From: a plasmid
Sequence record: NZ_CP011600.1
Length of the DNA: 64,000 nt
Strand: one strand, 5' to 3'
This document shows, piece after piece, positions 30,050-36,663 of the stretch; positions within the stretch are counted from its first letter, which is position 1; every line of letters starts with the position of its first letter. The notes beneath the pieces were generated by a model that saw nothing but the letters and a program-made list of their open reading frames with translations, did no database searches and was not told where the DNA came from. Position numbers and translations under genes: made by a program.

Positions 30050-30999
30050 TCAGTGCCCTGAATGCATATTTACAGGCTGGTCAGACATTGCTGGCATACT
30101 GCTTTCTGTTTTTTCAGGATGGCGCATACGTTCCAGCGCGCCCGTAATATTGGCTTCGGAGTCAATGAGGAACAGACCACTGACCACCACGGTATCGCCT
30201 TCATTCAGGCCGGAGCCGATGCCGGACTGTTGTTGTGATTCATGCAGAACGTGGATCTGTTTCGGCACAAACTTGCCTTCATCATCAACAGTAATCACGC
30301 GCTGTTCTTTGCCGGTATCGATAACGGCCTGGCTTGGTATCAGCAGCATCTCCTGGCTCTTGGTATTGAGTTTCAGATAGGCATTCATGCCCGGCTTGAG
30401 AAACTCATCCTTATTAGAAACCTGGAGACGGACCTGAAGCGTACGGGTTGTCTGATCCACGCTGGGAAGAATGTTCCATTTTTCGACATGGAATGTTTTA
30501 TCCGGATAAGCCGGTACCGAAATTTCAAACTGCGACGTATCTTTCAGCAGATAGGCGATAGATTCCGGCACTGCAGCGCTGATCCAGACCGGGTCCATCC
30601 CCTGAATCTGAGCCACCACCTTATCTTTCGAAATATTCATGCCGGTGCGCAGGTCAAATGCAGTAATGACACCATCAATAGGTGCTTTAATGGTAAAACG
30701 GGTCTGGATTGTGCGGGTTGAACGCAGTCTTTGAATATCCTCTTCCGGCATACCAGCCAGACGAAGTCGCTCCAGAACCCCTTTTATCTGGGTTGGCGTA
30801 CCGCCTGTACCGGATAGCAGCAGGAACTCACTTTGTGCCTCAACCCATTCAGGAATGGTGATATCGATAAGCGGAGTGCCTTTCTTCACATGATCGCCAA
30901 TCGTCAGGGGATACACTTTTTCGACGAAACCGTCAGAGCGCGCCTGCACAATGACAAACTGATACTCGTTGTAACTGACATTAGCCGGGATTGTCTGAG
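30050..30999 (-). pseudogene. silB: 5'-truncated membrane-fusion protein gene silB/cusB (C-terminal about 316 aa only)
   Basis: The ORF reads straight into the IS5-like left end at 31000; no N-terminus, and no silF/silC/silRS/silE upstream. Confidence 0.8.
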
Positions 31000-32195
<1,196 letters not shown>

Positions 32196-32646
32196 TTAGC
32201 ACAAAATGCTGCTGTCGAAGCTCTGGAACACTGGTGCGCGCATTAACCAGGCGCTGAGCGATAGGCCAAGAGTGCCAATTTTGCCCGTCAGTTTTCCCGT
32301 AACTATGCTCTTTCTAACGTAACTCTTTACACCATTTGTAAGAAGTTCAATGAAGTCGCTAAAGAAAAATGGTTTGAGCCGCTTGAAGAAGAGACGCACG
32401 TTTCTGAATACGAATAGCAGAAGCCATACTGAAGCATGAACGTTCGAGATGATATTGAGCTGAAAATATTGACGACAAAGAACAAGCGAGAAGCAGTTAT
32501 CCTAATAGTTGCAACTATTAATAAAAATTGAAACACTCAATACTTTTATTCTATGATCTCCATCGCAATTTCTATCAATTTAAATACAATTATCAAAAAT
32601 CAATTATAATGTAATAATAAAACCAATTAATAGCGTTGAGGAAATT

Positions 32647-34319
32647 ATGAGCATAAACCCTATAATAATAAGGCAAAATTTTAAAATCGGCGAATTGGAC
32701 GCTGAATCAGACACACTTCTCTTGGAAAACTGTTTTATTGATAGTGGTTATCTTTCTAAACTATTAAACCCATCTGATACATCATCTATAGTTATAGGAA
32801 GAACAGGCGCAGGAAAAAGTGCTTTGTTGCACATGGTGGCAAACAAAGCACATAAATATAAAAAACTTGACCCTAATGATATTTCAATAGGTTTTCTAGA
32901 GCATTCAGATATAATTTCATTTTTTGAAGAGTTAAATGTTAATCTTGATATGTTTTATAAAGTATTATGGCGACATATTTTAATTATGGAATTATTAAAA
33001 ATACGCCATGACATTAAGAGTGAATCTGATACGAATAGCTTTTTCTCAAACTTGCTTAGCAGGCTAAAAAAGATGAGATAAAACGAAAAGCCCTTGAGTA
33101 TTTTAGGGAGTGGGGAGATAAATTTTGGATAGATACTGACACCCATCTTAGGGAAATAACATACAAACTGGAACGTGATACTAAGGCTTCGATTGGCACA
33201 GAATACAGTGCTGTAAATCTTAGTGCTGAATATGCAAAAAAACTAACCGAAGAACAAATACATGATGTTAAGAAACGAGCAAATGAGGTTGTCAGTAGGT
33301 TACAGATTCAAAAACTTAATGAAATACTTTCATTGCTTGCTGAATATTCTTTTGATGACCCACAAAAAAACTATTACATCATTATTGATCAACTGGATGA
33401 TAACTGGGCGGAAAATGATACAAGATATAAATTTATAAGAGCGCTAATTGAAGAGATTAAGGTGTTTCGTAAAATTAAAAATATCAAAATAATAGCTGCT
33501 TTACGCCTGGACCTTTTACGATCAGTATTTAATATTACAAGAGGCTCTGGTTTTCAGGAGGAAAAATATGAGTCATATATACTTGATATAAAATGGACCT
33601 CTCAACAACTAACCGAATTAGTCCAAAAACGAGTGCGAGAGGTATACAAAAGACAATATACTCGAGAAGATGTTACTATTAAAGATATATTTCCAAAAGC
33701 AAAGGGGGGGCATTTAGGCATCACCCCTATTGAATATATAATTGAAAGAACATTATTTCGACCAAGAGACGTTTTACAATACGTGAATGAGTGTTTTAAT
33801 GTGGCACTTAACAGAGAAAGAATATCATGGGATTCAATTCATAAAGCGGAGGCAGTCTATTCCTTAAAGCGCCTGAGATCTCTAAAAGAAGAATGGGGGG
33901 ATATATACCCTTCCTTTGAGGAAACAATTGAAATACTGAGAAATCTTCCTGATAAATTTAGTAGAACATCTATGTCAAAAAACACTATAGACGCGGTATT
34001 AAGTGAATTATCCATTCAAAATACTACTGATCCATGTGCTATTACAGCAAACAAATTTTTAGAAGGAGAATCAAGAGAACAGGATGTCATTAATGAAATA
34101 ATGCTTTGTCTTTATACAGTTGGAATTGTAGGTTTCAAGATTAGTAGCCTGACACCTTACAAATGGGCATTCAGAGACAGTACACCAACAACAAAAAATG
34201 AAATCAAACGTGCCAGTCTGATGAAAATTCATAAGATGCTCCATTCAGCTCTAGATATAAGAATAATTACTGGAAATCGCTATGAACGCGATGATGAGGA
34301 AGATATTGAGTGTTCTTAA
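32647..34319 (+). CDS. P-loop NTPase (about 556 aa if read through a -1 shift) in an AT-rich islet; the 0-frame stops at 33081 and the -1 frame continues from 33060
   Basis: Walker A GRTGAGKS (32647-frame) and Walker B IIIDQLDD (downstream frame); the frames join at A-AAA-AAG (33066-33072); local GC is far below the flanks. Confidence 0.5.
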
Positions 34320-34543
34320 TTATATTATCTTTTGGTTTATAACATTTTTTGCCAGAAACAAGGATTATTCCCACACACACTAAGAAACTTTACTTTGAAG
34401 ATGGACGGATGACAGCAGGAGCCGTCCTCTTTTCTGTTACTTACATCCTGACATTCCTCCATTTATCCCAAATATTCAGTACTGGACGCACCTTTGAGTA
34501 TCATTCAAACTGATTGTAAGATTTAAACTTACAATCGTGAGGC

Positions 34544-34816
34544 TTGTATATCGCCAGAACAATAACAGTGGATCTCGGACACGAACTCCGTGACTTCATA
34601 GAATATCTCATTGAATCAGGTGATTATCGTACGCAGAGTGAGGTGATCCGCGAGTCACTTCGTCTCCTTCGCGAGAAACAGGCAGAATCACGTCTCCAGA
34701 CCCTGCGGAATTTACTGGCAGAAGGCCTGAGCAGCGGCGAGCCTGTGGTGTGGGAAAAGGACACGTTCCTGAAAAAAGTTAAAGCAGGCACAAAGCCTGC
34801 CGGTGAAAAACGTTAA
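34544..34816 (+). CDS. parD: ParD-family (RHH) antitoxin
   Basis: About 90 aa; ...RTITVDLGHELRDFIEYLIESGDYRTQSEVIRESLRLLREKQ...; non-ATG start, so the boundary is uncertain. Confidence 0.65.
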   Translation: MYIARTITVDLGHELRDFIEYLIESGDYRTQSEVIRESLRLLREKQAESRLQTLRNLLAEGLSSGEPVVWEKDTFLKKVKAGTKPAGEKR

Positions 34817-35101
34817 ACTCACACCTAAAGCCAGTCAGGATCTTGAGGATATCTGGTATTACGGCTACCACCATTTTCGGTGAGGAGAGGGCCGACAGAT
34901 ATATTAATCAGCTCTCCGCTTTTTTTTTGTTTTGGAGTGCTCATAATATCGGTACTCCCCGTCCTGAACTGGGGGAATACATATTGGCACTACCCGTTGA
35001 ATGACATATGCTTTATTTTCTGCAGACTGATACTGAAATTATTATTATCCGTATATTAAGTCAGCATCAGGATGCCGGCCGTCATCTCAACTGGGCAGTA
35101 G
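34801..35101 (+). pseudogene. parE: parE toxin gene disrupted by at least 2 frameshifts
   Basis: VKNVKLTPKASQDLEDIWYYGYHHF | GEERADRYINQLSAFF | LQTDTEIIIIRILSQHQDAGRHL is spread over three frames; a T-homopolymer sits at the shift. Confidence 0.6.
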
Positions 35102-35464
35102 TCGGCAACCACATTGCGCTGCGTGAAAACTGACAGGGTTACAGGGGTGTACCAGGTCAGAATTCACGTAGCGCATCCTCCCCTTCCCTGCTCCCTTCCT
35201 TTTTTTGTTCGATCCTGTTTGTCCTGGCATTACCCCAATTCTCCCAAAAACCGTAAAACAGCCATCAACCCGCGTCATTACTGGCTTCATGGAGGATCTG
35301 AGCAGAAAAAGGATCCTTTACGTATTTGGTTTTACCCGCAATAATGCGGGATAAGACAACAAAAGGATCCGCGCGCTGCGATTTATTGTCATGGCAGGAT
35401 CGGCCCGTCAGGTGCAAAATACCTGTATCCATAAACAGTGCGTGCGCTACGTGAAAAATAACTC

Positions 35465-36205
35465 ATGAACAGCATCATTCCCTTGCAGAATTCACCAGAA
35501 CGCGTCTCCCTGCTGCCGATCGCCCCGGGCGTTGATTTTGCGACCGCGGTGGCACTCCGGCGGATGGCCACCTCAACAGGTGCCACGCCGGCTTACCTCC
35601 TGGCGCCGGAAGTGAGCGCCCTCCTCTGGTATATGCCTGACCAGCGTCACCACATGTTGTTCGCCACCATGTGGAATACCGGGATCCGTATCGGTGAAGC
35701 CCGGACGCTCACCCCGGAATCGTTCGACCTGGATGGTCTGCGCCCTTTTGTTCGGGTGCTGTCGGAAAAAGTGCGGGCACGTCGTGGCCGGCCGCCAAAA
35801 GATGAAGTGCGTCTGGTACCGCTGACGGATGCCAGTTTTGTGCGTCAGATGGAAAGCTGGATGGTCACCACCCGCCCCCGCCGGCGTGAGCCGTTATGGC
35901 CGGTCACGGATGAGACAATGCGCAACTGGCTGAAACAGGCGGTGAAGCGGGCTGAAGCTGACGGCGTGCATTTTTCGATCCCCGTGACGCCGCATACTTT
36001 CCGTCACAGCTATATTATGCACATGCTTTATCACCGGCAGCCCAGGAAGGTCATCCAGGCACTGGCCGGGCATAAGGATCCGCGCTCGATGGAAGTCTAT
36101 ACCCGGGTATTTGCGCTGGACATGGCTGCCACCCTGGCCGTTCCCTTTACCGGTGATGGGCGAGATGCCGCGGAGATCCTTCGCTCCCTGCCCCCGGCCG
36201 GCTGA
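35465..36205 (+). CDS. tyrosine site-specific recombinase (phage-integrase family)
   Basis: 246 aa; R..HxxR..Y catalytic signature (GEARTL..., [19 protein letters not shown]). Confidence 0.7.
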
Positions 36206-36663
36206 GATTGACGGCCCTGGCATGACGTCCTGTATTCCGCTAATACGAAATACAGGAGCAGAGCGCATTCAGTGCCCCTCCCTGCTCCAGCACACCAGGA
36301 CATCATTCGGATGACTGAACAGCCGTGGTCTTGCACGGTGACCTGCAAGCCTGCAGGCATCGACATACCGCAGACAAGACAGGACACAGGCCGTACATCC
36401 CACAGTGTATTGTTTCCTGAAAGCTCAGTGAATCATCCCGTTAATTGCGAAAGTCATTCACCCCTGTGGCTCACTCCCTTCTGCCATCGGTCTCCTGTTC
36501 GCATTTAGCAGTGTGAAGCTGGCGCCGGGTTATACAGACAGCTGCAGTCTCATCCTGCCGGGCTAAACCTGCAATACACAGGGGAACGGATACCGTCAGG
36601 TAACATGACCGTCTCAGCATCCGATTGAGATTTTCGTAAGGGGTATAGAGCTTTACTGAAAAA

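Follow-up and report, generated by a model that had tools for sequence, protein, structure and literature searches.

A dnaX-like slippery heptamer in a plasmid-borne Sll1717-family ATPase gene probably reflects a one-base deletion and not programmed recoding

When a gene is split into two frames exactly at a canonical slippery heptamer, is it a case of programmed recoding or a broken allele? The question is raised by a P-loop ATPase gene in region 32196-34543 of a 64,000-nucleotide (nt) plasmid stretch (sequence record NZ_CP011600.1), hereafter the window. An earlier note on this DNA had proposed a dnaX-type programmed −1 frameshift yielding a gamma/tau-like pair of products. That proposal is not supported, since uninterrupted open reading frames (ORFs) with a seven-adenine run (A7) exist, stimulatory elements are lacking, and the short product ends before the Walker B motif. 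The window gene is very probably a pseudogene allele of a catalogued gene, created by the deletion of one base from an A7 run, and not an instance of programmed recoding.

The two parts of the gene and the sites discussed below are as follows.

32647-33081, plus strand: 5' fragment, a 144-codon ORF (ORF1) that encodes ancestral residues 1-142, then M-R-stop.
32797-32820, plus strand: Walker A (P-loop) motif GRTGAGKS, residues 51-58, in ORF1.
33066-33072, plus strand: lesion site, with an A6 run (33066-33071) followed by G, forming the heptamer A-AAA-AAG; the intact allele has A7.
33072-34319, plus strand: out-of-frame 3' part in the −1 frame, ancestral residues 143-557, stop codon at 34317-34319.
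33378-33401, plus strand: Walker B motif IIIDQLDD, residues 245-252, in the −1 frame; G33396 is the first base of the D251 codon.
33704-33710, plus strand: G7 run, intact in the window and G6 in Klebsiella pneumoniae A6 plasmids, where it causes a second frameshift.

The junction reads AGC AGG CTA AAA AAG ATG AGA TAA, in which the heptamer is in 0-frame phase and the 0-frame stop is the third codon past it. Walker A and Walker B lie on opposite sides of the junction, and 415 codons follow in the −1 frame. The layout described in the earlier note, with Walker A in one frame, Walker B and about 415 residues in the −1 frame, and a stop three codons beyond A-AAA-AAG at 33066-33072, is confirmed by the ORFs and motifs and can be read directly. 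Of the two product sizes it gave, the short form of 144 amino acids (aa) stands, while the fused reading comes to 557 aa and not 556. In identical plasmids the 5' fragment is annotated as WP_016236299.1, and the RefSeq annotation of the 3' part is limited to 33333-34319, with a TTG start (WP_223883545.1).

A megablast search of 32500-34400 against 72,556 plasmids (PLSDB) returned 87 records at 99% identity or more, most of which align over 1902 nt and not 1901. Alleles were counted by exact matches to short queries spanning the junction. Among the 71 complete PLSDB plasmids that hold the junction, 48 carry A7 and 23 carry A6, and no A5 or A8 run was found. The A7 plasmids contain one uninterrupted 1674-nt coding sequence (CDS) for the 557-aa protein WP_000026497.1; examples are Escherichia coli pABWA45_1, K. 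variicola pKV1, K. pneumoniae pINF078-VP, Raoultella planticola pJBIWA001_4, and Citrobacter pCFR-9161. The extra A is the sole difference between the window gene and the intact CDS (WP_000026497.1; loci L002, L003, and L028-L030), and the fused reading becomes identical to WP_000026497.1 once one A is restored. Unlike the intact allele, the window copy goes out of frame at codon 143, and standard decoding of it cannot give the full protein. Among complete E. coli genomes, A7 outnumbers A6 by 22 to 1, and the RefSeq name of the intact gene is 'P-loop ATPase, Sll1717 family'. The 23 A6 plasmids were found in K. pneumoniae (17), E. coli (1), Serratia (2), and Raoultella (3). The exact 144-aa product of the A6 allele occurs on at least 1000 public contigs (NCBI, ENA, JGI, Logan), as does the intact 557-aa product. 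A replication slip in the A-run, one of two alternatives that the earlier note had left standing, fits an intact A7 allele that differs by one A only. The other, a sequencing artefact, is an unlikely source of A6 given the recurrence of the allele in 23 complete plasmids and of its product on so many contigs.

The heptamer itself loses its weight as evidence in the light of this comparison. The intact junction reads CTA AAA AAA GAT, encoding L-K-K-D. Because the loss of any one A from CT-A-AAA-AAA-G necessarily yields CT-A-AAA-AAG, the heptamer appears in phase with a −1 continuation. It is an automatic product of the deletion and therefore not independent evidence for recoding. Moreover, 10 in-phase heptamers of the X_XXY_YYZ type occur in the 1674 nt of the intact gene, and the A-AAA-AAG heptamer is not present in the ATPase gene more than chance would provide.

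The split is likewise not a property of the family. A K. michiganensis chromosomal copy (82% identity) and an E. coli copy (81%) are unsplit and read AGA TTA AAA AAA GAT and CGT CTT AAA AAA GAT at the junction, respectively, and synonymous sites around the junction differ between the window gene and these homologues. The earlier note had specified beforehand that homologues encoded as single ORFs with A7 would point away from recoding; the 48 of 71 plasmids and these diverged copies fit that description. Homologues at 30-84% identity are single collinear ORFs. An exhaustive search of 1.84 billion representatives returned 546 clusters (50% identity) at E ≤ 1e-30, nearly all of which contain proteins of 540-560 aa that align in one piece over residues ~5-540. 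In alignments of 18 and 70 homologues, collinearity extends across the junction, at which the Lys-Lys position is variable (RK, SR, GR, NR). Residues G51, R52, T53, G54, G56, and K57 of Walker A and D251 of Walker B, tabulated on the cluster representative P0001 (99.6% identical), are invariant in the 70 homologues. A survey of 79 genomic loci at species level counted 69 intact copies and six with a frameshift, no two at the same residue; the break at residue 142 is found only in L044, which is the same plasmid allele. In the other five frameshifted loci (L061, L062, L070, L097, and L105), the breaks found lie at ~90, at 117 and 340, at 162 and 205, at 350, or at 417. Sll1717-family genes thus appear to be pseudogenised now and then at arbitrary places and to be lost fairly often.

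An AlphaFold2 model of the intact protein was obtained from the 70-sequence alignment, with a predicted local distance difference test (pLDDT) score of 84.4 and a predicted template modelling (pTM) score of 0.83. In it, an AAA+ core bears Walker A (51-58) and Walker B (245-252), separated by a long helical insert (~88-235); a helical lid comes next, and then a C-terminal domain of the alpha/beta (winged-helix-like) type. Residue 142 falls within the helical insert, between the two Walker motifs. Normal translation of the A6 allele would stop inside this insert after 144 codons. Judging from the model, the resulting product would keep the P-loop but have neither Walker B nor the greater part of the core sheet, and should be incapable of forming a P-loop ATPase core; it would be non-functional.

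Two kinds of stimulator of −1 frameshifting were sought, alone or together: a Shine-Dalgarno (SD)-like element ~10-14 nt upstream of the heptamer and, 5-8 nt downstream of it, a stable stem-loop or pseudoknot. The upstream sequence, TTTTTCTCAAACTTGCTTAGCAGGCT, contains no SD-like element at a distance of 10-14 nt. The 78 nt past the heptamer (33073-33150) have a folding energy of −10.5 kcal/mol (z = +0.67), which is matched by 149 of 200 shuffles. No stimulatory hairpin was found in this segment, in which the first 6-base-pair stem begins 19 nt past the heptamer. Of the features that characterize a dnaX-type site, the window gene has the slippery heptamer in 0-frame phase and lacks the stimulatory elements, and neither the site nor the split arrangement is kept among homologues. 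In addition, the structural model makes it implausible that both products function.

Few heptamers shift as readily in E. coli as A_AA.A_AA.G, even when stimulators are missing (PMC4066793). Sharma et al. (2014) reported ~0.3% −1 shifting on the three best V_VV.A_AA.G heptamers without stimulators and cited an upper bound of ~3.7% in the best 3' context (PMC4066793). Trace amounts of full-length protein from the A6 allele are plausible because of these published stimulator-free rates. Because the deletion leaves the heptamer in phase, a small fraction of ribosomes probably slips −1 on this allele, of the order of 0.3% in E. coli and no more than a few per cent. Such trace protein would be incidental leakiness of a mutant allele and not the output of an evolved signal.

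These findings suggest a simple course of events. A single, horizontally acquired 557-aa AAA+ ATPase gene, low in guanine and cytosine (GC) and located beside the IncFIB replicon of Enterobacterales F-type plasmids, would have lost one A from its in-frame A7 run, most likely by replication slippage. Two A6 haplotypes can be distinguished. The window type equals the A7 haplotype minus one A; besides the window itself, K. michiganensis L044, three plasmids from Raoultella, and two from Serratia carry it. Six loci with the K. pneumoniae type were read, one of them from E. coli (L007) and the other five from K. pneumoniae; of the 23 A6 plasmids, 18 do not belong to the window type. This second type carries further changes: G33396T, which converts the invariant Walker B residue D251 to Y (TAT); shortening of the G7 run at 33704 to G6, which shifts the frame a second time; changes in and beside the G-run at 33895-33902; and two more substitutions. 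With D251Y and the second frameshift, the K. pneumoniae lineage could therefore yield no functional protein even from a ribosome that had shifted at the A-run. All these extra lesions lie downstream of the A-run, with none in the 870 nt upstream and none in the 250-nt 3' flank; roughly five events fall in 53% of the compared sequence (roughly P = 0.04). This clustering 3' of the A-run is consistent with decay, and no more than that. The G-run and adjacent AT at 33895-33902 vary among L004-L009, with G8, G7, or G6 equivalents, which may reflect slippage in a dead gene or homopolymer errors in the assemblies.

The two A6 types occur on different mosaic backgrounds. The window type resembles the A7 plasmid L029, while the flanks of the K. 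pneumoniae type resemble L002 and L030 at 34763, 35323, and 35509. The flanks are mosaic, and their single-nucleotide polymorphisms fit an A6 deletion that arose once or twice. Across all plasmids the low-GC islet hardly varies, a sign of recent spread.

Against the NCBIfam model NF047389 (P-loop ATPase, Sll1717 family), which has a curated cut-off of 75 bits, the fused reading scores 212.8 bits (E = 9.7e-63), with its residues 14-536 aligned to profile positions 1-454, the full length of the profile. Score and coverage, the Walker motifs, and the invariant residues are those of the family; the single intact ORF is missing. The fold is that of an ORC/Cdc6- and STAND-like AAA+ ATPase. The profile and structure searches of the fused product proposed in the earlier note thus identify a member of NF047389 with an AAA+ fold. 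Pfam gave only sub-threshold nSTAND1 and AAA matches (nSTAND1 21.7 against a gathering score of 27.1), and a profile search against PDB sequences matched no chain. PADLOC gave only weak partial matches (PDC-M28C, mad8, PtuA; best E = 4.7e-4), which were not used for assignment. The intact allele is carried by IncF plasmids of E. coli, Klebsiella, Raoultella, and Citrobacter. In Table S10 of DefensePredictor (Science 2026), WP_000026497.1 is listed as 'Predicted novel defense gene' with a mean log-odds of 14.7, the strict log-odds cut-off being 4 (PMC13092281). The defence candidacy of the intact gene is thus already known as a published computational prediction. A literature search found no papers with 'Sll1717' or 'WP_000026497' in the main text, and the protein appears only in the supplementary table. 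The intact protein would most likely be a nucleotide-dependent, oligomerising sensor or switch ATPase in phage defence. Its fold, remote homology, and neighbourhoods suggest that it acts alone or with a lineage-specific effector such as TIR.

Several observations weigh against regarding the window gene as a plain pseudogene. The A6 allele is common, being present in 23 of 71 plasmids, with its 144-aa product on at least 1000 contigs and the 328-aa downstream ORF on 514. It stands on at least two flanking haplotypes, so recurrent slippage is possible in place of a single event. The window-type haplotype bears no further downstream lesion, and a leaky allele may be retained. Finally, the defence role of the intact protein is itself predicted. 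One explanation built on these points is that selection keeps the leaky allele as a 'savior'-type indel, a low dose of full-length ATPase lowering cost or toxicity while preserving some function. The high intrinsic slipperiness of the heptamer (PMC4066793) suits this idea, as do the wide distribution of A6 and the untouched downstream frame of the window-type haplotype; 'savior indels' and low-level compensatory frameshifting are described in a review as established for other genes (PMC5009743). However, the near-invariance of the islet, attributed to recent spread, makes an undamaged downstream frame uninformative on selection, the largest A6 lineage has not preserved a full-length product (D251Y and the second frameshift), and stimulators are lacking. 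We consider retention of this kind improbable. It is also very improbable that A6 is a selected attenuated form, in which −1 slippage (and any transcriptional slippage) supplies ~0.3-4% full-length protein and so tunes a costly or autotoxic defence gene; if it were, recurrent A7-to-A6 change on different backbones would explain the high frequency of A6.

The two run lengths might instead represent a phase-variable switch, with A7 (ON) and A6 (OFF) interconverted by slipped-strand mispairing to create population heterogeneity in a defence gene. The alleles indeed differ in run length only, and A6 is found on at least two flanking haplotypes, but recombination can account for the latter because the flanks are mosaic. 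Furthermore, a 7-nt run is short for high-rate phase switching. The long conserved homopolymer and several length alleles of a contingency locus are not seen here: only A6 and A7 occur among the 71 plasmids, the tract is not conserved in homologues, and decay after A6 was irreversible in one lineage. Phase variation is accordingly a very unlikely account. A dnaX-type programmed shift that sets a regulated ratio of 144-aa to 557-aa products could draw on the in-phase canonical heptamer, the close 0-frame stop, and the long open −1 frame. Against it stand the A7 single-ORF homologues, the failure of hundreds of homologues to conserve the site or arrangement, the missing SD-like or hairpin stimulator, a heptamer that follows automatically from a one-base deletion, and a short product without Walker B and most of the ATPase core; we judge it extremely unlikely. 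Homopolymer miscalling merits practically no credence. Homopolymer indels are a common class of error, and the G-run at 33895-33902 does vary among K. pneumoniae assemblies, but the same A6 recurs in 23 complete plasmids that come from several genera and were assembled independently in several laboratories, and its exact protein product is found on at least 1000 contigs. A pseudogene allele formed by one-base deletion is consequently the reading that we retain.

No obligate partner gene is universal across 82 homologous loci. The homologues sit in defence-type neighbourhoods. A gene for a ~295-aa CAP12/Pycsar-type TIR protein lies directly upstream in four Pseudomonas species (L037, L038, L040, L043) and in an Isosphaeraceae metagenome-assembled genome (MAG; L086), separated from the ATPase gene by −3 to 36 nt in Pseudomonas and 215 nt in L086. 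This arrangement suggests a putative two-gene TIR and ATPase variant of the system. In several Beta- and Gammaproteobacteria, and likewise in an Eisenbacteria MAG, the gene directly upstream is hsdR or hsdS of a type I restriction-modification (R-M) system. Homologues inside or just after type I R-M operons are those of L071, L109, L048, L076, and L077: the distance to an upstream HsdR gene is 25-93 nt in L109 and L071 and 782 nt in L048, an HsdS gene precedes the homologue by 13 nt in L076, and an HsdS-like ORF is near the gene in L077. A Photobacterium homologue is located in an island with SIR2 and a helicase, and the K. michiganensis and E. coli homologues stand beside integrases and insertion sequence (IS) elements. 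Together with the DefensePredictor result, these neighbourhoods support the suggestion of the earlier note that the gene is a horizontally acquired, usually solitary ATPase and a candidate defence factor.

Two other associations were recorded. A ribonucleotide reductase gene lies upstream on the same strand in seven of the 82 loci (L018, L045, L047, L058, L074, L088, L093); these reductases are class Ia nrdAB, class II, or intein-containing, and the hosts range from Pseudomonas/Gammaproteobacteria to Acidobacteriota. The adjacency could reflect an integration hotspot or a functional link. In most related plasmids, a 269-aa gene (L002 4774-5583; also in L001, L004-L009, and L025-L030) is found 565 nt upstream of the ATPase gene, and its product has a weak HEPN_RiboL-PSP match (E = 3.7e-5) under the gathering score. 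This HEPN-like gene was rejected as a partner in view of its distance and normal GC content, its absence from K. variicola pKV1, and its deletion in the window.

The ATPase gene occupies a compositionally distinct stretch. In 400-nt windows, GC content is 0.29-0.37 across ~32400-34400 and 0.49-0.58 in the flanks; it is 33.4% (0.334) in the ATPase gene and 53.7% (0.537) in the whole window. This profile agrees with the ~2.3-kb low-GC stretch previously placed between an IS5-like element and parDE. The surrounding and expression-related features are listed here.

~31000-32195: IS5, with its right inverted repeat at 32180-32195; upstream neighbour of the low-GC stretch.
32528-32557, plus strand: sigma-70-like promoter match, TTGAAA-18-TATGAT, the best upstream of the gene (10/12; a consensus match only).
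32638-32642, plus strand: Shine-Dalgarno sequence GAGGA, 4 nt before the ATG at 32647, read from the sequence.
34544-34816: parD, downstream neighbour of the low-GC stretch.

Promoter-like sites in the region are at chance level, with 11 observed against 10.6 expected from shuffles. A terminator scan of the region found none, and a scan of 30500-36500 matched no Rfam family. As for the parDE neighbour, parD is present and an intact parE is not. The ParE-like sequence is itself broken: an in-frame stop at 35002-35004 divides it into two ORFs of one frame, 34843-35004 and 35008-35133, and ParD is the only member of parDE annotated in related plasmids. The intact-allele plasmids share the position beside parD, an integrase gene, and IncFIB repB. 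In the window, the upstream neighbours of the ATPase gene have been replaced by IS5 and the sil operon; related plasmids hold two other genes at the IS5/sil position (WP_000533745.1 and WP_000654269.1). IS5 adjoins a truncated silB (339 aa) in the region 30050-32195. It has TTAG at its right flank, and the matching 4-bp duplication was not found at the left, which suggests a possible IS5-associated deletion or rearrangement upstream of the ATPase gene.

The analysis removes a false candidate for programmed recoding, and the case itself matters little. The reusable outcome is a rule: whenever an in-frame A7 run with a G behind it loses one base, the result mimics the dnaX heptamer with a −1 continuation, and near-identical alleles must therefore be checked before recoding is called. 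For annotation, the two 'hypothetical proteins' in A6 plasmids should be merged into one pseudogene. The Sll1717 family, for its part, comprises widespread single-protein AAA+ ATPases and is a credible anti-phage candidate, as already predicted in the literature.

Comparison with known systems places the gene more precisely. E. coli dnaX has an SD-like element upstream and a stem-loop downstream of its heptamer, and the arrangement is conserved. Its shifted product, gamma, is the short one, which keeps the complete ATPase module and drops only the C-terminal domains. The window gene shares with dnaX the A-AAA-AAG heptamer and a 0-frame stop shortly after it. In contrast, its shifted product would be the long one, its site is without stimulators, its homologues are unsplit, and its short product is without Walker B. 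The ATPase is only 10-17% identical to BrxC (BREX), RdrA (RADAR), and the archaeal AAA+ proteins SSO1545 and PAB2304, and no BREX or RADAR partner genes are present. A closer likeness is offered by DS-41, which consists of a single 502-aa protein, AAA2 (WP_033812887.1), and protects E. coli against several BASEL phages (PMC13092281). Both are single-protein P-loop ATPases with Walker A at ~55, a helical insert, Walker B at ~250, and a lid motif (R/S)PR(D/E). The DS41_1 model (NCBIfam NF053860, equivalog) matches residues 18-428 with 55.4 bits (E = 5e-15), far under its equivalog cut-off of 370 bits, and DS-41 membership was rejected in favour of a different family. BLASTP to WP_033812887.1 aligns 194 aa, from Walker B to the lid RPRD, at 21% identity (E = 6e-4). 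The window ATPase and DS-41 thus appear, from their sequences, to be related by distant homology and to share the same architecture.

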